Shown here in pieces: positions 31,427-52,414 of a DNA stretch of 64,000 bases. The DNA is taken from the NCBI GenBank assembly GCA_963819585.1, contig CAWFWP010000015.1, forward strand, positions 20,886 through 84,885. The letters run 5' to 3'. Every line of letters begins with the position of its first letter. Position 1 is the first letter of the stretch. Source of the DNA: an uncultured Alphaproteobacteria bacterium. GTDB lineage: Bacteria; Pseudomonadota; Alphaproteobacteria; Rhodobacterales; Rhodobacteraceae. A model generated the notes under the pieces. The model was given only the letters and a program-made list of their open reading frames with translations, ran no database searches and was not told where the DNA came from. A program made the position numbers and the translations under genes.

Positions 31427-31696
31427 TCAGTCGTTCACGTCCTTCTTCCAGACCTTCACCTGGCCCTCATGCCGCCCGAACACCGCCCTTAAGCCCAGCC
31501 ACGCCCCCAATGAGGCCACCGCGAACACCGCCAGCATCAGGCTCAGCGACCCGCCCAACACCCCCACCAGCACCAGCAGCCCGGTGATCGCCGCCCCGCC
31601 CGCAAATCCCAGGAACACGAACGCCGGCACCACCAGCTCCAGGATCGCCAGCAGCCCCGCCGCCACCATCCAGACCCACCATTCCTGCCACCACAT
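31427..31696 (-). CDS. NfeD-like short membrane protein
   Basis: MWWQEWWVWMVAAGLLAILELVVPAFVFLGFAGG…VKVWKK; its ATG overlaps the SPFH stop (TGATG). Confidence 0.6.
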   Translation of the reverse strand: MWWQEWWVWMVAAGLLAILELVVPAFVFLGFAGGAAITGLLVLVGVLGGSLSLMLAVFAVASLGAWLGLRAVFGRHEGQVKVWKKDVND

Positions 31697-32575
31697 CACG
31701 TCCGCCCCTTCAGCATCCTGAACGCGTCGCCGAACGCATCCAGCGCCTGCGCCGGCACGATGATCGTCTGCTTGCCCGCCCCCTGGCCCACCGCCGTCAG
31801 CGCCTCGACCTGCTTCAGCGCCACCTGATACTGCGCCGCCTCCAGCCCGTTCTCCTTGATCGCCACCGCGATCACCCCCGTCGCATAGGCCTCCGCATCC
31901 GCCAGAACCCGCCGCGCCTTCGCCCCCTGCTCCGCCGCGTAAAGCTCCGCATCCGCGTTCAGCTCCACCGCCCGCTTGCGCCCCTCGGCTTCCGTCACAT
32001 TCGCCCGCCGCGCCCGCTCCGCGTTCAGCTGCTGCAGCATCGCCGCCCGCGTCGCCTCGTCCAGGTTCACGTCCAGCAGTCTCCGCCCGCGTCACCTCGA
32101 TGCCCCAGTCATCCACCATCGCGCGCACCTGCTCGCGGATGTTCGCCGTCAGCGCCGTCCGGTTCGACTGCACCTGATCCAGCTCCATCTTGCCGATCTC
32201 GCTCCGCACGATCCCCGCCACCGTCGTCGCGATCGCCGCATCCACGTCGCGGATCCGGTACACCGTCTTTTCCGGCTCGGTGATCCGGTAGAACACGCTC
32301 GTCTCGACCTTCACCAGCACGTTGTCCGTCGTGATCGCGTCCTGCTGCGCCGTCGGCAGCTGCCGCTCCAGAATGCTGATCTTGTGCGCCACCCGGTCGA
32401 GGAACGGCACGATGAAGTTGATCCCCGGCCCCAGCACCGCGCGCAGCCGCCCGAAGCGTTCGACCACATGCTTCTCCGACTGCGGCACGATCCGCACGCC
32501 GAGGAAGATGCAGAGGATGAGGAAGGCGGCAAGGACAAGCCAGACGGAATTGCCGTTGAGAAGGTCGGCGGGCAT
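31696..32575 (-). CDS. SPFH/band-7 (stomatin/slipin-like) protein; frameshift near 32090
   Basis: MPADLLNGNSVWLVLAAFLILCIFLGVRIVPQSEKHVVERFGRL… continues in a second frame: …NLDEATRAAMLQQLNAERARRANVTEAEGRKRA… RBS AAGGAG. Confidence 0.8.
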
Positions 32576-32796
32576 GGGGGCTCCTTAAGGGGCGCTACGG
32601 TCGGCGCGGAGTATGCCGGGGGGAGGAGGCGGGGGGAAGGGGGGAGGGTGAGGATGGAAGAGGGTATCTCCCGATCCCAGAATGTATTGGGGTCCCAAGG
32701 TACTTGGCGCCACTCTACGGCTGCGAAATTCAACTTGCCGGCTTGTCAAGGATCAGTTAGCTTTGCGCCATTAAGATAGAGCAATTGGTTGCCCTC

Positions 32797-33333
32797 ATGG
32801 TTAGAAGCACACCCCGTTCTAATCGACCCTCAGAAACTCCTGCTGGAAACTCTCTACCATCTCGTCTTTGGCAGGAATTGTCGAATAAAATCATAGTTGC
32901 GATCTGCACATTGGCTGCCGCCGGCATTGGTAGCGCACTTTATCTGAGCTGGGATTCTATAAAAATAAAGCTGGGACAATCGGTCATCAATATCGTTGGC
33001 TCTGAACTTTCAAAAAAGAGCAGCAATATGTCAATCCTAGTTGGAGAAATCGTAGCCTCTGAGCTTTCCAAGAAGGACAGCGGCATCTCAAAATTAGTGG
33101 AAGCACGCGCCAAAGCTGCAATTAACCGAACATTTGGGGCCGTAAGCGCCGGCCAAGCATCAATAAATGCACAGTATAACGACCATATACTTTATGTATA
33201 TTGCCCGCCCTCCCACGAAGGTCAGTTAATTGTGTCGGTTGAGGGCATTGATACTGGTGAGCGGATAATTGTTACAATGGCAGAGCAGCCTCCAATTACC
33301 ATTGATAATAACGTCGACGAATCGCCCGTTTGA
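32797..33333 (+). CDS. Low-GC islet ORF A: single-pass membrane protein with internal SELSKK repeats
   Basis: TM segment IIVAICTLAAAGIGSALYLSW. The repeats are GSELSKKSSNMS and ASELSKKDSGIS. Codon usage is AT-rich, unlike the host. Confidence 0.45.
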   Translation: MVRSTPRSNRPSETPAGNSLPSRLWQELSNKIIVAICTLAAAGIGSALYLSWDSIKIKLGQSVINIVGSELSKKSSNMSILVGEIVASELSKKDSGISKLVEARAKAAINRTFGAVSAGQASINAQYNDHILYVYCPPSHEGQLIVSVEGIDTGERIIVTMAEQPPITIDNNVDESPV

Positions 33334-33412
33334 AATAGTGACCCCGTCATTAATGAAGCGAGACTCAAGTGGCGCAGGCCCGCAAACCATTATGACGGTA
33401 AACGAGGGTATT

Positions 33413-33568
33413 ATGAAGTATGCCTATCCAGTCAAATTTACATTGGCCGCAGATCCGGTAGCTGATGGGTCAATAGATGACTATCGGTCACCCGACGAAT
33501 TGACCTCACGAGTTTCGGTTAAATACCTTCTCCTTATTTCTCCTCCAATAGAGAAGAGCAATGGCTAA
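33413..33568 (+). CDS. Low-GC islet small ORF B (51 aa; alternative start at 33353)
   Basis: GAGGG SD 4-5 nt before the ATG at 33413: MKYAYPVKFTLAADPVADGSIDDYRSPDEL…. Confidence 0.2.
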   Translation: MKYAYPVKFTLAADPVADGSIDDYRSPDELTSRVSVKYLLLISPPIEKSNG

Positions 33569-34364
33569 AGCACTACAGATGCTCGGCAAACTTTTTTCAG
33601 TCCTATTTGTGGCCCTTATTGTCGGCGCGCTCGTATCCAGTTCTGTATCCGCAAACAGTTTGTTCGAGAGGGAGATCGAAATAAATGGCAGGAAAGGCCA
33701 CCTTATATACGTTAATCCAACTAGTTCAATAGTAAGAGTTATCTCGCCAAGATCGACTGCCTATGTCAAGTCTGATCAGACTCCCTCAATTCGAGATGGT
33801 TTGTTTTTGCTCGACTTAGTTAAGCGGCATAGACCTTTGGCAATTCTATCTGGCGGATACCTTAGTTCTTTCTCGCCCCCGAGAGCACTGGGCTTACTTA
33901 AGGTGGCAGGAAAGAGAATTTCGGGCGGGCACCGGAGTTGGCTGACAACCGGTATGTTCTGCACGTCAGGCGACCGCTACAAAATTCTGCCTGCAACTGG
34001 GTTAGAAGTCGCTGAACTATTTCCAGATTGTGTTCAGGCGGGGCCGTATCTGGTTAGGGACGGAGTTAATCGTTATAAGTCCCTTGACATGGTTGGTTCT
34101 GGGGAGAGAGAGGTTGCGCTTGCTCAGCAGAGTCAAGTTTTTTTATGTATTACTCGCAACGACAATTTAATTCTGGGGTTTGTAGATGGGGGGAATTCTG
34201 TTGGAGTTGCATCCTTTGCTCATGCGGACTTGGGTTGCGTCGATGCACTAAGACTAAGTGGAGGTATAACAGCAGGACTGTGGAGTGTTGATGTGGGGTT
34301 TTTGGGAAATAACGAAGTTCAACTCACGGATGCGATAGCAATATTTGCACGTGACGTCCCATAG
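33561..34364 (+). CDS. Low-GC islet ORF C: secreted phosphodiester glycosidase-like (DUF2233/NAGPA-like) protein
   Basis: Signal peptide MAKALQMLGKLFSVLFVALIVGALVSSSVSANS. Motifs …VQAGPYLVRDG… and …ALRLSGGITAGLW… resemble DUF2233 (…sGPlLv.dG…, …NLDGGGS…). The family assignment is made from memory. Confidence 0.5.
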   Translation: MAKALQMLGKLFSVLFVALIVGALVSSSVSANSLFEREIEINGRKGHLIYVNPTSSIVRVISPRSTAYVKSDQTPSIRDGLFLLDLVKRHRPLAILSGGYLSSFSPPRALGLLKVAGKRISGGHRSWLTTGMFCTSGDRYKILPATGLEVAELFPDCVQAGPYLVRDGVNRYKSLDMVGSGEREVALAQQSQVFLCITRNDNLILGFVDGGNSVGVASFAHADLGCVDALRLSGGITAGLWSVDVGFLGNNEVQLTDAIAIFARDVP

Positions 34365-34597
34365 ATCGGCCTCTCTGCCTATCAATGCACCGTGCTCACC
34401 TTAGCTCTGTCGCTCTGCAAACCCCCTCAAACCCCCGTAATCTCCTTCCGCGCCGAACTCCCCAGAAACGCCGACCGGCTCATCCGCCGCCCCTTCGCCG
34501 TCTCGTCGATGGCCCGTGAGCTACCCCCGGTCCAGCGAAATATTCGCCCGCAACTGCGCCCCCTCGGGGCCGATGTATGGCACAGTCAGCCGCATCG

Positions 34598-34632
34598 CCC
34601 CCTTCACTCATCCTTGTTCCGACTGTCGAGCA
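34598..34632. repeat. Imperfect direct repeat copy 1 (CTCACTCATCCTTGTTCCGaCTGTCGAGC) of the 3' end of the gene at 35028..35534
   Basis: 29 of 31 bases match 35022..35056. The reverse complement encodes …RLLDSRNKDE*, compared with …YQLDRRNKDE* at the gene end. Confidence 0.6.
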
Positions 34633-34639
34633 AACGTAG

Positions 34640-35001
34640 GGTGCGTGCTCGCACGCACCACTCCGTCCTCCACCACACCCCCTTCCCGATTTGACCCGTG
34701 ACAAATCGGGACGCGCCTGCCTGCCCGTGGCAGGCGCGTTACCGCGCCCGCCCAGTCAGGCGCGCCCCGATTGCAACCCACCGCGCCCTGCGGCACCCCT
34801 CTTGGCCGTCGCGGCGTTCCGCCGCTTTGGGCCAACCGGCATGGCCGACCTGCCACTGGCAGGTCGTCTGGTCATGCCGGACGGCGCGTGACTCCAACCT
34901 GTCATCCCCGCGAAAGCGGGGACCCAGCCCTTCGTCCCGGCGCAGGCCGGGACCCCGATGAACCGGGCGCGCTGCCAGCGAGGCCCCGGCCTCCGCCGGG
35001 G
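34640..35001. repeat. Cluster of at least 8 GC-rich hairpins (REP-like palindromes) in 360 bp of noncoding DNA
   Basis: Stems at 34640-59, 34685-710, 34712-38, 34811-25, 34847-65, 34901-23, 34934-53 and 34984-35001. Two have GNRA-like loops (TCCCCGC-GAAA-GCGGGGA; GTCCCGGC-GCAG-GCCGGGAC). Confidence 0.5.
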
Positions 35002-35021
35002 CGGGCGGGAAAAGGCCAATG

Positions 35022-35056
35022 CCCCCCTCACTCATCCTTGTTCCGCCTGTCGAGCT
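35022..35056. repeat. Direct repeat copy 2 (native 3' end of the brnA-like gene)
   Basis: See copy 1. Confidence 0.6.
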
Positions 35057-35534
35057 GATAGATCATCTCCTCGACCTGCTGCCATGTCGGTATCCGCTCC
35101 GTCTGCCGGGGCGGGGCTGCGTCCTCGAAGCGCTCTCCCAGCAGCTCCAGCGCCTCGCCGAAGGGCGGGCGCGGGCCGTCATGCACCTCCTCGCGGTGCT
35201 TGAAATGGTTCAGCGTCTCGGCCCCGCGCACGAAACCGGCCAGCCGCGCATGCATGAAGATTTTCAGCACGTCGGCCATCCGGCCCAGATGCCCGGTTCC
35301 GGTCGCGCGGAAGAAGCGGACAACATCCTCCTCGATCCGCATCGTCACCTTGATCCGTTTGCGGTCCGGTGTCGCCTTGGCGATGTCGTGCCAGTCCCTG
35401 GGGATGAACCCGCTCCGGTCGATGGCGTTGTGCAGGTCCCATTCGATGCGTCGCCCGACATCGATCATGTAGGTCGCGTGCGCCCGCTGCTTCGCGGTCT
35501 GTCTGGAATAGTCCGTCCTGATCTCGTCGGTCAT
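35028..35534 (-). CDS. BrnA-antitoxin-like (DUF4415) protein with a 68-aa C-terminal extension; no BrnT partner seen
   Basis: …DRKRIKVTMRIEEDVVRFFRATGTGHLGRMADVLKIFM… matches BrnA K..V.lRLD.DVv.fFKa.G.G.l.RmnavLR. RBS GAGGGGGG. Confidence 0.55.
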   Translation of the reverse strand: MTDEIRTDYSRQTAKQRAHATYMIDVGRRIEWDLHNAIDRSGFIPRDWHDIAKATPDRKRIKVTMRIEEDVVRFFRATGTGHLGRMADVLKIFMHARLAGFVRGAETLNHFKHREEVHDGPRPPFGEALELLGERFEDAAPPRQTERIPTWQQVEEMIYQLDRRNKDE

Positions 35535-35607
35535 GTGGCCCCCCTCGAACAGCTCCGATTGTCGTACGGGGGCGGTTAACAGGGGCAGACCGGGGCGCGC
35601 GCCGCGT

Positions 35608-35660
35608 ATGGCAGGGTGCTGGCACGTTGCTGGCAGGTTGCTGGCACCCTCGCTGGCGGC
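35608..35660 (+). repeat. About 3.5 tandem copies of an 11-bp unit (TGCTGGCAnnn) immediately upstream of dinB
   Basis: The units are tgctggcacgt, tgctggcaggt, tgctggcaccc and tcgctggcggc. Confidence 0.4.
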
Positions 35661-35684
35661 ATTCCGGGGTGCTATCCTGCCCCC

Positions 35685-36950
35685 ATGCCCGCCCTCTGCC
35701 GCGACTGTCTGACCGCCCTCGACCCCGCCCCGGCGGACCTGTCCCGCTGCCCGTCCTGCCGCTCCCCGCGCCTGCTGAACCACCCCGAGCTGTTCACCCT
35801 CTCCATCGCCCACATGGACTGCGACGCCTTCTACGCCAGCGTTGAAAAACGCGACAACCCGGCCCTCGCCGCCCGCCCCGTCATCGTCGGCGGCGGCCAT
35901 CGCGGGGTTGTCTCAACCTGTTGTTATATCGCACGAATCAAGGGCGTGCGGTCGGCCATGCCGATGTTCCAGGCGCTGAAACTCTGCCCCGAAGCGGTGG
36001 TGATCCGCCCGCGTTTCGACGCCTACGTGACCGCCTCCCGCGCGATCCGCGCGATGATGGAGGCGCTGACCCCCCAGATCGAACCCCTGTCGCTGGACGA
36101 GGCGTTCCTCGACCTCACCGGCACCGCCCGCCTCCACCACGCGCCCCCCGCCGTCCTGCTGGCGCGTCTGATTAAGCGGATGGAAACCGAACTCGGGTTA
36201 AGCGGCTCCGTGGGCCTCTCCCACAACAAGTTCCTCGCCAAAGTCGCCTGCGATCTGGACAAACCGCGCGGCTTCTCGGTGATCGGCCAGGCCGAAACCG
36301 CTGATTTCCTTCGGGAAAAGCCGGTCCGCCTGATCTGGGGCGTGGGGGCGGCGACGCAAGCCGCGCTCGACCGCCACGGCATCCGGACCTTTAACGATCT
36401 GTTAAGATGGGACCGCAAGGACCTCGGCCACCGCTTCGGCCAGATGGGCGACCGGCTGTATTTCCTGGCACGGGGAGAGGACCGCCGCCGGGTGAACCCG
36501 CACGACCTGCCGAAGTCGATCTCCAACGAGACGACCTTCAACGAAGACACCTCCGACCGCGACCTGCTCGACGGTCATATCTGGCGGCTGGCCGAGAAAG
36601 CCTCCGACCGCGCCAAGGCGAAGAACCTTGCGGGACGGACAGTTACGCTGAAACTCCGGCGGACGGATTTCACCATCCTGACCCGCCGCCACGCCCTGCG
36701 CGAACCGACCCAGATGGCCGACACCCTCTACCGCGCCGCCGCTGACCTTCTGAACGCGGTGACCGAACCGGGCCCGTTCCGCCTGATCGGCGTCGGCCTG
36801 TCGGACATCGCGCCCGACACCGCCGCCGACCTGACCCCCGATCTTCTCGACCCCCAAGCCGCCCGCCGCGCCAAAGCCGAACGCGCGGCCGATGCGATCC
36901 GCGAAAAGTTCGGCAAGGACGCCATCGTCAAGGGCCGCGCTCTGCGCTGA
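35685..36950 (+). CDS. dinB: DNA polymerase IV with an N-terminal Cys4 zinc-ribbon-like extension
   Basis: …LSIAHMDCDAFYASVEKRDNPAL…VVSTCCYIARIKGVRSAMP… is preceded by CRDC-x13-CPSC. Confidence 0.9.
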   Translation: MPALCRDCLTALDPAPADLSRCPSCRSPRLLNHPELFTLSIAHMDCDAFYASVEKRDNPALAARPVIVGGGHRGVVSTCCYIARIKGVRSAMPMFQALKLCPEAVVIRPRFDAYVTASRAIRAMMEALTPQIEPLSLDEAFLDLTGTARLHHAPPAVLLARLIKRMETELGLSGSVGLSHNKFLAKVACDLDKPRGFSVIGQAETADFLREKPVRLIWGVGAATQAALDRHGIRTFNDLLRWDRKDLGHRFGQMGDRLYFLARGEDRRRVNPHDLPKSISNETTFNEDTSDRDLLDGHIWRLAEKASDRAKAKNLAGRTVTLKLRRTDFTILTRRHALREPTQMADTLYRAAADLLNAVTEPGPFRLIGVGLSDIAPDTAADLTPDLLDPQAARRAKAERAADAIREKFGKDAIVKGRALR

Positions 36951-37964: not shown

Positions 37965-38040
<76 letters not shown>

Positions 38041-50525: not shown

Positions 50526-51548
50526 ATGGGCTATCGTGTCGTTGTCGCAGGGGCCACCGGGAACGTGGGCCGCGAAATGCTGAACATCCTCGCCGAACGG
50601 GAATTCCCGGTCGATGAGATCGCAGCGCTTGCATCGCGCAAGTCGCTGGGGACCGAGATCAGCTTCGGAGACAAGACACTCAAGACCAGAGACCTAGACA
50701 CCTTCGACTTCACCGGCTGGGACATCGCGCTCTTCGCCGTCGGCTCTGATGCGACGAAGGTCTATGCGCCCAAGGCCGCTGCGGCGGGCTGCATCGTCAT
50801 CGATAACTCGTCGCTCTACCGCTATGACCCCGACGTGCCGCTGATCGTCCCTGAGGTGAACGCCGACGCGATCATGGGCTATGCCAAGAAGAACATCATC
50901 GCCAACCCCAACTGCTCGACCGCCCAGATGGTCGTCGCGCTGAAGCCCCTGCATGACCGCGCCCGGATCAAGCGTGTCGTCGTCAGCACCTATCAGTCGG
51001 TGTCGGGTGCCGGGAAGGAAGGCATCGACGAGCTCTGGGACCAGACCAAGGCGATCTACAACCCGACCGCGCATGTGCCGCCGAAGAAATTCCCCCGGCA
51101 GATCGCGTTCAACGTGATCCCGCAGATCGACGTCTTCCTTGATGACGGCTTCACCAAGGAAGAATGGAAGATGGTCGCCGAGACCAAGAAGATCCTCGAC
51201 AAGAAGATCAAGGTCACGGCCACCTGCGTCCGCGTCCCGGTCTTTGTCGGCCATTCGGAATCGGTGAACATCGAGTTCGAGGAGTTCCTCGACTGGGAAG
51301 AAGCGACCGACATCCTGCGCGAGGCGCCGGGCATCATGGTCGTCGATAAGCGCGAACCCGGCGGCTACATCACCCCCATCGAATGCGTCGGCGACTACGC
51401 CACCTTCGTCAGCCGCATCCGCCAGGACAGCACCATCGACAACGGCCTGTCGATGTGGATCGTGTCCGACAACCTGCGCAAGGGGGCCGCGCTCAACGCG
51501 GTGCAGATCGCGGAAGTGCTGGGAAACCGGGTGCTGAAGAAGGGGTGA
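50526..51548 (+). CDS. asd: Aspartate-semialdehyde dehydrogenase
   Basis: MGYRVVVAGATGNVGREMLNILAEREFPVDEIAALASRKS…NCSTAQMVVALKPL…, 340 aa. Confidence 0.9.
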   Translation: MGYRVVVAGATGNVGREMLNILAEREFPVDEIAALASRKSLGTEISFGDKTLKTRDLDTFDFTGWDIALFAVGSDATKVYAPKAAAAGCIVIDNSSLYRYDPDVPLIVPEVNADAIMGYAKKNIIANPNCSTAQMVVALKPLHDRARIKRVVVSTYQSVSGAGKEGIDELWDQTKAIYNPTAHVPPKKFPRQIAFNVIPQIDVFLDDGFTKEEWKMVAETKKILDKKIKVTATCVRVPVFVGHSESVNIEFEEFLDWEEATDILREAPGIMVVDKREPGGYITPIECVGDYATFVSRIRQDSTIDNGLSMWIVSDNLRKGAALNAVQIAEVLGNRVLKKG

Positions 51549-51618
51549 GGCGAGCACGTCGTTCTCTCAATTTCAACTGGCCGGAGAGAAAGCAGCCGTC
51601 TGCAGCGTCGGATAGGGC

Positions 51619-52113
51619 TTACTCCAGTGGCAGAATGCTGAGCTCCTTTGACGACTCGACCAAAATCGCCTCGCCCTTCGGAGTATTGACCAGGATCCAA
51701 GGCACTATTCGCAGGTAGCGCCTTGGAAAGCGGAGCTCTCTCGGCAATTCAGAACGGATTGCCGTCATCCTAGACTGCTCGTCTACAATAATGAATAAGG
51801 CGGCCAGCGGTGGGGAGGCATCGCAGGCTTGGTCAGCGCGCCTCACGACAACCGCGTCGCACAGTTTGCCGGCGCCGGAATGCTTCCCATCCCGGCACTG
51901 ACCCAAAAAACGATAGACATCATGATAGTCTAGACGGAGGACCTCGATCACAGCATCGTCTGGCACACTCATCTCGCATGCCTTTGCCAAAGCACTCTTT
52001 TCTTCGTCGGTGGCCTTGCCCCTTTGGACAGTCGGAAAAGTAGACAAAGCAGCCTCAGCAGTGGCGATCAGAATAGCGGTCGCCAAGAGCAAGCGTTGCA
52101 ACTCAGCTTTCAT
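51619..52113 (-). CDS. Secreted hypothetical protein carried in a lower-GC insert next to asd
   Basis: Signal peptide MKAELQRLLLATAILIATAEAA and four Cys residues. No family recognised. Confidence 0.4.
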   Translation of the reverse strand: MKAELQRLLLATAILIATAEAALSTFPTVQRGKATDEEKSALAKACEMSVPDDAVIEVLRLDYHDVYRFLGQCRDGKHSGAGKLCDAVVVRRADQACDASPPLAALFIIVDEQSRMTAIRSELPRELRFPRRYLRIVPWILVNTPKGEAILVESSKELSILPLE

Positions 52114-52239
52114 GCTTCACCTTTTTCTTGCGTCGCCACTACCCAACTTCTGAGCCGGTCGAGACAGTAGGGTTTTGCAAACTTAAGGCAGCGGTGAGCG
52201 GAATGCCAAGTAACCGTGTAGAATGCTTCTTCGAGAGTG

Positions 52240-52388
52240 TAATCTACGTGTCGCGCATCCTGCCGCACAGCACCATCGAGAACGGACTGGGCATGTGGAT
52301 CATCTCCGACAACCTGCCGAAGTGCGTGGCGCTGAACGCCGTCCAGATCGCGGAAGTGCTGGGCAATCGGGTGTTGAAGAAGGGGTGA
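52240..52388 (+). pseudogene. Diverged duplicate of the asd 3' end (last ~48 codons)
   Basis: …YVSRILPHSTIENGLGMWIISDNLPKCVALNAVQIAEVLGNRVLKKG* compares with the asd C-terminus …FVSRIRQDSTIDNGLSMWIVSDNLRKGAALNAVQIAEVLGNRVLKKG*. DNA identity is about 85%, and the last about 35 bp are identical. Confidence 0.6.
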
Positions 52389-52414
52389 GGCGAGCGGGGC
52401 GTGTGCGGTCCCAA

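Follow-up and report, generated by a model that had tools for sequence, protein, structure and literature searches.

To our knowledge, no function has been established for the bacterial members of the NAGPA/DUF2233 protein family, and small foreign islets with hypothetical envelope proteins are common. In this family, the loop 286-DGGGS-290 has been reported as strictly conserved from bacteria to humans, the substitutions D286A, G288A, G289A and S290A and those of R316 abolish NAGPA activity, and tethering of human NAGPA to the membrane by its stalk raises activity (PMC13474241, 2026). This study concerns a 64 kb stretch of contig CAWFWP010000015.1 from an uncultured alphaproteobacterium of the Rhodobacteraceae (the whole stretch is called the window below), in which an islet of low guanine-plus-cytosine (GC) content at 32660..34400 encodes a secreted protein related to this family and, directly upstream, a membrane protein. 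We read the islet as an acquired, self-contained two-gene cassette with its own upstream region, whose products would form a periplasmic complex, tethered to the membrane, with chemistry or binding of a non-canonical kind, and we give this reading a probability of roughly 0.55. The anatomy of the cassette can be regarded as secure and its mechanism as weak.

An earlier note on this DNA, made from the letters alone, had counted three genes in the islet, namely a membrane protein (open reading frame (ORF) A, 32797..33333, forward strand), a tiny ORF (ORF B, 33305..33568, forward strand) and a secreted protein (ORF C, 33561..34364, forward strand, 267 aa). When the homologous upstream proteins of two other loci, L001 and L002, were searched against the window by tblastn, two matches in two frames were obtained: their N-terminal 140–160 residues corresponded to ORF A, which was also supported by alignments and hydropathy, and their C-terminal 50–70 residues to the frame of the tiny ORF, with 44% identity to L002. 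Since the homologues at other loci are single ORFs of 239–272 aa that match both parts, the alignments indicate that ORF A and the tiny ORF are two parts of one gene of about 250 aa, here called the partner gene, and that the islet holds two genes rather than three. The frame of the tiny ORF is open from 33269 to 33568, and three-frame translation showed that it overlaps the open frame of ORF A at 33269..33333 on the forward strand, inside which the +1 frame change of the partner gene must lie. A programmed frameshift was rejected, as the partner is a single ORF at every homologous locus. The partner alignment showed the common motifs YxPxxH and, at the C-terminus, SRVxVxYxxLxSPPI, the latter listed for the window part as SRVxVxYxxLISPPI. 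The stop codon of the tiny ORF overlaps the start of ORF C (ATGGCTAA, 33561-33568), and the same coupling was found at other loci. The two genes are co-oriented and, as judged from these arrangements and from the predicted topology of their products, would be translationally coupled and encode two extracytoplasmic proteins.

The frame change between 33269 and 33333 stands in the sequence as given, and a decaying relic, in which the partner gene is truly frameshifted and the cassette non-functional in this strain, would explain it, although we consider this unlikely. Frame breaks were sought throughout the window by a frame plot of the GC content at third codon positions (GC3), using same-strand switches in which the frame left behind remains open over hundreds of bases, and then by Pfam. 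Six were found in 64 kb (about one per 10 kb). Four were located by frame plot and Pfam, in pnp (PNPase, ~4170, forward strand), in an Oxidored_FMN/FAD oxidoreductase gene (~14760, forward), in clpB (~22950, reverse) and in an isocitrate/isopropylmalate dehydrogenase gene (Iso_dh, ~60260, reverse), where profile positions 3–76 fall in one frame and 78–348 in another; two were located by three-frame translation, in an SPFH/band-7 gene that is a single ORF in all relatives (~32075, reverse) and in the partner gene itself (~33300, forward). Four of the six interrupt conserved housekeeping genes (PNPase, Oxidored_FMN, clpB and Iso_dh). Because these genes are split in the same way, an assembly insertion or deletion (indel) is likelier than pseudogenization, and the frameshift in the partner gene is probably of this kind; for the housekeeping genes of this sort, at least five with SPFH included (pnp, clpB, Iso_dh, Oxidored_FMN and SPFH), assembly indels fit better than mass pseudogenization within 64 kb. 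An intact ORF C with its clade motifs conserved also speaks against decay. Given the suspected indels, gene calls across the whole window need caution.

The two-gene cassette is conserved as a unit. In 12 independent loci, the partner gene abuts the NAGPA-like gene or overlaps it (the window, L001, L002, L083/L084, L085, L086, L087, L088, L090, L091, L092 and L093), and wherever the DNA was readable, a partner of 239–272 aa without a Pfam domain lies directly 5' of the NAGPA-like gene. The partner is the only conserved neighbor of the NAGPA-like gene, and the pairing is obligatory across the 12 loci, being kept even with distant members of the partner family (P0011 in L088 and P0055 in L090); on the short contig of P0033, the downstream gene would, going by the gene call, have a different orientation. 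A scan of metagenomes contributed only three more loci. Between L001 and L083, the ratio of nonsynonymous to synonymous substitution rates (dN/dS) was 0.28 (partner) and 0.37 (NAGPA-like gene), and both genes are under purifying selection. The partner family comprised 76 cluster representatives at E <= 1e-3 in a profile search of 1.84 billion representatives; nearly all of these are stand-alone proteins of 130–350 aa, most match over most of their length, and the family had no meaningful Pfam or PDB sequence match. Relatives of ORF C were only four to five among 5.8 billion clustered proteins. As far as the libraries and literature searches used here show, neither the partner family nor the conserved pair has been described.

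The islet also differs from the DNA around it. The region 32700–34380 has a GC content of 47.1%, the lowest of any 1.7 kb window of the 64 kb, compared with a mean of 65.8% for the whole window and 66.2% and 66.5% for its two flanks, and the fall is sharp at both edges (~32640–32700 on the left and 34400–34440 on the right). From composition profiles, GC3, the tetranucleotide profile and the comparison with relatives, the islet was placed at 32660..34400 (~47% GC), and it contains the cassette with ~135 bp of DNA upstream and ~35 bp downstream. The GC3 of ORFs A, B and C is 0.42–0.44 against 0.86 in the DinB gene and 0.93 in the SPFH gene on either side, and the tetranucleotide profile of the islet correlates with that of the whole window at -0.11 (window median 0.94), making it the strongest outlier in the window. 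Therefore, the low-GC islet of about 1.7 kb described in the earlier note is real, and the k-mer and codon comparison with the host that it had proposed came out in its favor, although the GC content is ~47% and not the 35–40% it gave.

On the left, the islet is flanked by an NfeD-like gene (31427-31690, reverse strand; a contiguous single ORF in the relatives as well) and the SPFH/band-7 gene (31696-32575, reverse), and on the right by the gene for DinB (DNA polymerase IV; 35685..36950, forward), whose start was placed at the conserved ATGCCCGCC at 35685, the matches of the relatives opening at query residues 8–26, mostly 15–24. With DinB as the synteny anchor, 80 related Paracoccaceae loci of 69–78% identity were obtained, the best of which reached 77–78% (Albidovulum, Ostreiculturibacter and metagenome-assembled genomes (MAGs)), with no close relative of the source genome among them. 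In 33 of the 80, the NfeD–SPFH operon lies upstream of and divergent from DinB, at a spacing of 82–367 bp in 13, about 550–630 bp in 4 and 1.5–7 kb in 16; in the window this spacing is ~3.1 kb (32575 to 35685). ORFs A, B and C have no counterpart in any of the 80 loci, and neither does the BrnA-like protein that also occupies the gap in the window. Because the spacing varies and the cassette genes are found in none of these loci, the gap between SPFH and DinB is a spot that varies recurrently, and the cassette is specific to the lineage. The synteny check suggested in the earlier note thus found no host-typical homologs at the site, and the horizontal acquisition without a mobility gene that it had proposed is supported, since the site measures only 80–370 bp in 13 relatives, the cassette is absent from all 80 loci and its composition is foreign. 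At another locus, on the metagenome contig L002, the same cassette type forms an islet of 48% GC in DNA of 62–64% GC, between GH42 β-galactosidase and GNAT genes; this islet contained no mobility gene and shared no end sequences with that of the window. A second clade of the pair (L001, L083 and L086) has a host-like GC content of 67–71%.

Concerning ORF C, its N-terminus carries the signal-peptide-like hydrophobic segment that had been noticed earlier (...SSSVSA|NS), and its four cysteines are invariant in the clade; the predicted signal peptide and the conserved cysteines fit a periplasmic location. The protein matched the Pfam NAGPA profile (PF09992) at E 9.4e-9 and 36.1 bits (gathering score 25), with residues 96–245 on profile positions 7–147 of 169, and the L091 homologue scored 38.1 bits; an NCBIfam scan of the islet ORFs gave nothing. 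Because neither ORF C by itself nor the clade profile reached a DUF2233 entry when PDB sequences were searched, a fold search was used. An AlphaFold2 model from an alignment of five sequences (predicted local distance difference test 78, predicted TM score 0.77) was compared with the PDB by Foldseek, and the only significant matches were NAGPA/DUF2233-type chains (6u11, 6pki, 6pku, 6pky, 3ohg, 5h3k and 6ozd), with E values from 1.7e-12 (6u11) and 1.4e-9 (3ohg) to ~1e-5 and TM scores of ~0.6. They comprise catalytic domains of vertebrate NAGPA, 3OHG (a DUF2233 structure from Bacteroides) and two other chains from bacteria. The comparison of the predicted model confirmed ORF C as a member of the NAGPA/DUF2233 fold family, with the three-subdomain α/β fold of its solved structures, and the likeness proposed in the earlier note has held, with 36.1 bits against a threshold of 25 and Foldseek E values of 1e-12 to 1e-9.

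The canonical phosphodiester glycosidase is marked by DGGGS with its essential Asp (human D286), and the ORF C clade lacks this feature. An alignment of the clade with E. coli YigE by hhalign placed ALRLSGGITA opposite LLYLDGTISH (probability 78%, E 1.8e-5), with S233 at the position of the Asp, and the loop reads SGGIT (S233-G-G-I-T) in ORF C of the window. Among the nine clade sequences that reach the motif, this position is Ser in eight and Thr in one, the loop variants being SGGIT, SGSIT, SGSVT, SGQNS, SGHVT, SGHIT and TGHAT. The Arg of YigE (in WQRYPF, 19 residues past the Asp and before the last strand) aligns with E252, and this position is E, Q or N in the clade by MAFFT alignment and spacing. 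The motifs LSGGY, HxSWL, DCxQxGP, RY and ALRxSG..AGL near the pocket are invariant in the clade, as are the residues H124, S126, W127, D156 and E182. As these neighboring motifs are invariant while the catalytic Asp is replaced, the alignments point to a pocket that is conserved but chemically changed. The E. coli K-12 yigE gene (L089, 15293–16057) itself reads LDGTIS; loss of the Asp, rather than departure from the full DGGGS, appears to be the standout feature of the clade.

ORF C could still be an active phosphodiester glycosidase of the canonical kind, trimming envelope polymers linked through sugar-1-phosphate, such as exopolysaccharide, capsule or teichoic-acid-like polymers, with the upstream gene as an accessory. 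The Pfam score above threshold, the fold confirmed by the fold search, the retained family motifs (SGGY, QxGP and the Gly after the Asp position) and the extracytoplasmic location of both proteins would all fit such an enzyme. We nevertheless find it improbable, because the DGGGS Asp is Ser or Thr in every member reaching the motif, the Arg position is acidic or an amide, and D286A and R316 substitutions are the very changes that abolish NAGPA activity (PMC13474241); moreover, none of the 12 loci has conserved polysaccharide genes in its surroundings. The glycan-modifying activity suggested in the earlier note is therefore doubtful in its canonical form, since the substitution runs throughout the clade, whereas its more general suggestion of a cell-envelope module is reasonable, both products being extracytoplasmic by the transmembrane helix of the partner and by the signal peptide and four Cys of the NAGPA-like protein.

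The main reading of a tethered, non-canonical complex draws its outline from the anatomy of the partner. Topology heuristics on the repaired window protein gave an N-terminal tail of net charge +3 and one hydrophobic helix at aa 30–52, followed by a predicted helical stalk that carries the SELSKK units and by a predicted β-rich C-terminal domain (β-sandwich). SELSKK occurs twice in the window partner, about 20 aa apart, and the number of stalk units is two in the window and the high-GC clade and one in L002 and P0008; the single-pass membrane protein with SELSKK repeats reported earlier was thus recognized correctly, within what is now the N-terminal part of the partner, a part that extends into the beginning of the β-rich domain. 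In the proposed mechanism, the gene 1 product (~250 aa) would be oriented N-in/C-out, with a short, net positive cytoplasmic tail, one transmembrane helix, a helical stalk in which a 20-aa SELSKK-type unit occurs once or twice, and a β-sandwich domain in the periplasm; in the present assembly, a frame error of a single base splits this gene. Gene 2, translationally coupled to gene 1, would supply a Sec-exported protein of the NAGPA/DUF2233 fold, stabilized by its conserved cysteines, which the partner would dock at the periplasmic (outer) face of the inner membrane. The complex may then act on an envelope glycoconjugate, binding or processing it in a way that differs from canonical GlcNAc-1-phosphodiester cleavage. 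Because the clade has Ser or Thr for the catalytic Asp and apparently Glu, Gln or Asn for the phosphate-binding Arg, ORF C most likely does not perform that cleavage and may be either a re-tooled enzyme or a ligand-binding pseudoenzyme.

Several points weigh against this reading. Physical contact between the partner and the NAGPA-like protein is something that we infer, and a genuine frameshift would leave the cassette inactive in this strain. The Arg-to-Glu equivalence is an apparent one, obtained from the MAFFT alignment and spacing and not from structural superposition. With its DGTIS loop, YigE shows that bacteria do not keep DGGGS strictly, and a variant with Ser could have retained activity. 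Finally, glycan-synthesis genes are not conserved in the vicinity. More tentatively, the system may have two periplasmic components, with the anchored stalk and β-sandwich presenting a re-tooled NAGPA fold for new chemistry on, or recognition of, an envelope glycoconjugate such as a lipid-linked sugar or a non-phosphate-linked glycan, and the system may spread among high-GC alphaproteobacteria as a minimal, promoter-bearing cassette without a mobility gene. We hold this fuller version with low confidence.

The earlier note had also raised abortive infection and receptor masking, and an anti-phage or exclusion module of this type, including superinfection exclusion, carried on a small mobile islet, would suit a cassette that is accessory, rare and foreign. 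Toxin–antitoxin genes lie near L001, L083 and the window cassette (BrnA-like in the last), and domains of the NAGPA fold are found in phage lysin-like proteins. However, the searches brought no positive evidence for it: ORF A, ORF B, ORF C and the BrnA-like protein had no match in PADLOC-DB at E up to 1, a PHROGs scan of the islet ORFs was without significant hits, ORF C had no tblastn match in the plasmid and phage collections, and a viral-contig scan found no relative. The phage NAGPA domains come from Gram-positive phages and are alike in fold only, at 10–16% identity, and other loci of the pair sit among housekeeping genes (L088 and L091), so that we regard such a role as very unlikely. 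A secreted effector with a membrane-anchored immunity protein, bacteriocin-like and acting on lipid-linked or phosphodiester-linked cell-wall precursors, is likewise very unlikely in our view, since ORF C, at 267 aa, lacks a delivery or receptor-binding domain and has altered catalytic residues, the candidate immunity gene lies upstream and no secretion-system genes are nearby, even though the unit is compact, two-gene, translationally coupled and horizontally mobile, NAGPA domains occur with the lipid II phosphatase TelC in polymorphic toxin-like proteins of Bacillota (bioRxiv 10.1101/2025.01.14.632903), and the partner faces the periplasm from the membrane as some immunity proteins do.

The routes by which the two-gene cassette might have entered the window were also considered. 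No integrase, transposase or recombinase family was found by Pfam among the ORFs at 24.5–39.5 kb, which cover ~8 kb upstream and 5 kb downstream of the islet, in agreement with the earlier note. No direct or inverted repeats bracket 32660-34400, and no transfer RNA (tRNA) gene adjoins the islet, the only one found (Val) being at 37965. Of the features of a classical genomic island or integrative element, an integrase, att repeats and a tRNA target were missing, and the deviant composition and the absence from relatives were present. Of those of an integron cassette, there was no integrase and no inverted repeat <=230 bp past the ORF C stop, although no dedicated attC model was run. A promoter and terminator scan upstream of the partner gene found nothing convincing, and Rfam gave no RNA family inside or around the islet.

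The islet lies between a G-rich tract and a hairpin cluster, as had been described from the sequence alone. The tract (32615..32662, forward strand; repeat family D1) forms the left border in the SPFH upstream region, and it is probably host DNA; one relative, L005, has G-runs at the matching place upstream of SPFH. On the right, the gap between SPFH and DinB continues beyond the low-GC cassette with two further layers of DNA, a hairpin cluster of host-type GC and an orphan gene with a BrnA domain. The GC-rich cluster of repetitive extragenic palindromic (REP)-like hairpins (34632..35020; DNA fold z-score -8.2, with inverted repeats) lies outside the cassette and is enclosed, over 389 bp, by a 35-nt direct repeat (repeat family D2; copies at 34597..34631, forward strand, and 35021-35055; 94% identity). 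One hairpin unit (34670–34772) has a counterpart of 76% similarity upstream of DinB in the Albidovulum MAG L004 (2087–2204), and the hairpins are for this reason taken as native-type repeats and not as islet ends; the cluster was rejected as an end structure also on account of its host-type GC and its own bracketing repeat. The hairpins do not look like attC sites, as they start at 34632, have host-type GC and have relatives in other Paracoccaceae. A REP-like GC-rich palindrome, for example TGTCATCCCCGCGAAAGCGGGGACCCA at 34900-34926, recurs in the unrelated metagenome contig L090 (722–748), and such hairpins may be family-wide extragenic repeat elements.

The 35-nt repeat corresponds to a duplication of the BrnA-like gene's 3' end, with its last codons and stop, and occurs only twice in the window. 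This orphan gene (35028..35540, reverse strand; ~170 aa; Pfam BrnA_antitoxin, E 1.5e-8, with a PHROG antitoxin match) has a host-like GC content within the variable gap and leaves no room upstream for a BrnT toxin gene. Elsewhere in the window, a second lower-GC islet (51563–52220, ~54% GC) lies within 51381–52402 and encodes a 164-aa signal-peptide protein (51619-52113, reverse strand) without a Pfam match. This islet is bracketed by a 182-nt direct repeat (77% identity) that arises from duplication of the 3' end of the gene for aspartate-semialdehyde dehydrogenase (asd); the arrangement looks like the footprint of an integration into a gene 3' end, yet no integrase is present. The repeat at the BrnA-like gene follows the same pattern on a smaller scale.

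Among the loci of the pair, flanks were usable at only six, with toxin–antitoxin genes near three (the window, L001 and L083) and housekeeping genes near two: the L088 pair adjoins ribosomal protein, Pth and ACIII genes, and the L091 pair adjoins polA. The cassette on L091, a MAG contig, also sits in a patchwork variable region, and a separate stretch of 49–55% GC (L091 6000–7600), with ORFs that lack Pfam matches, lies ~1.2 kb upstream of that pair. Toxin–antitoxin pairs (ParD-like, PhD/PIN, PSK/PIN and RelB/ParE) flank the cassettes of the high-GC clade (L001 3613–5018 and 12799–13436; L083 1771–2302). The L001 contig ends in a ParB-like gene and may be a plasmid or chromid.

With its obligatory membrane partner and its consistently altered catalytic loop, the clade offers a tractable two-gene contrast to the canonical enzymes, and it could show what else the NAGPA fold can do. 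The example of YigE cautions that the DGGGS motif is less invariant in bacteria than has been stated (PMC13474241). Two further points are of more general use: in draft assemblies, a tiny ORF that adjoins a truncated gene may reflect an indel artifact, and compositional islets of < 2 kb can move between unrelated sites without recognizable mobility machinery. If the function proves ordinary, the cassette would be one more accessory envelope gene pair, and no surprising mechanism has been demonstrated here.

Compared with known systems, the islet shares with integrase-less genomic islets its foreign composition, its absence from relatives and its recurrently variable site (0.08–7 kb in 33 relatives). 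Unlike a plain genomic islet, it has no flanking repeats, tRNA gene, integrase or transposase, and a cassette of the same type is found, again as a low-GC islet, at an unrelated site in L002. The NAGPA modules of Gram-positive phage lysin-like proteins and of Bacillota polymorphic toxins have the same fold as ORF C (BFVD E 2e-10 to 1e-6) and act on the cell envelope, but they are fused to CHAP, amidase or TelC domains within large multidomain proteins, whereas ORF C is stand-alone and alphaproteobacterial, with a separate partner. E. coli YigE is likewise a single-domain exported DUF2233 protein of ~250–270 aa, and its DGTIS loop is closer to the SGGIT of the clade than DGGGS is. However, YigE keeps both Asp and Arg, has no upstream partner gene (its neighbors are uvrD, ysgD and corA) and is encoded by a core E. 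coli gene and not in an islet.

With the NAGPA/DUF2233 family itself (PF09992; the human uncovering enzyme; 6PKU, 6U11 and 3OHG, which is BACOVA_00430), ORF C shares the predicted fold, a Pfam score above threshold, the character of an extracytoplasmic, disulfide-containing protein and several loop motifs. Its sequence identity to the solved structures is only 15–18%, its clade has an S/T-G-x-x-T/S/A loop in place of DGGGS, and the position of Arg316 appears as Glu, Gln or Asn by MAFFT alignment and spacing. NAGPA carries its epidermal growth factor (EGF) stalk and transmembrane helix in one chain, whereas ORF C has neither and is accompanied instead by a separate membrane-anchored partner gene; the cassette would by analogy represent a split version of the eukaryotic NAGPA layout, that is, a membrane-tethered catalytic core with a stalk.

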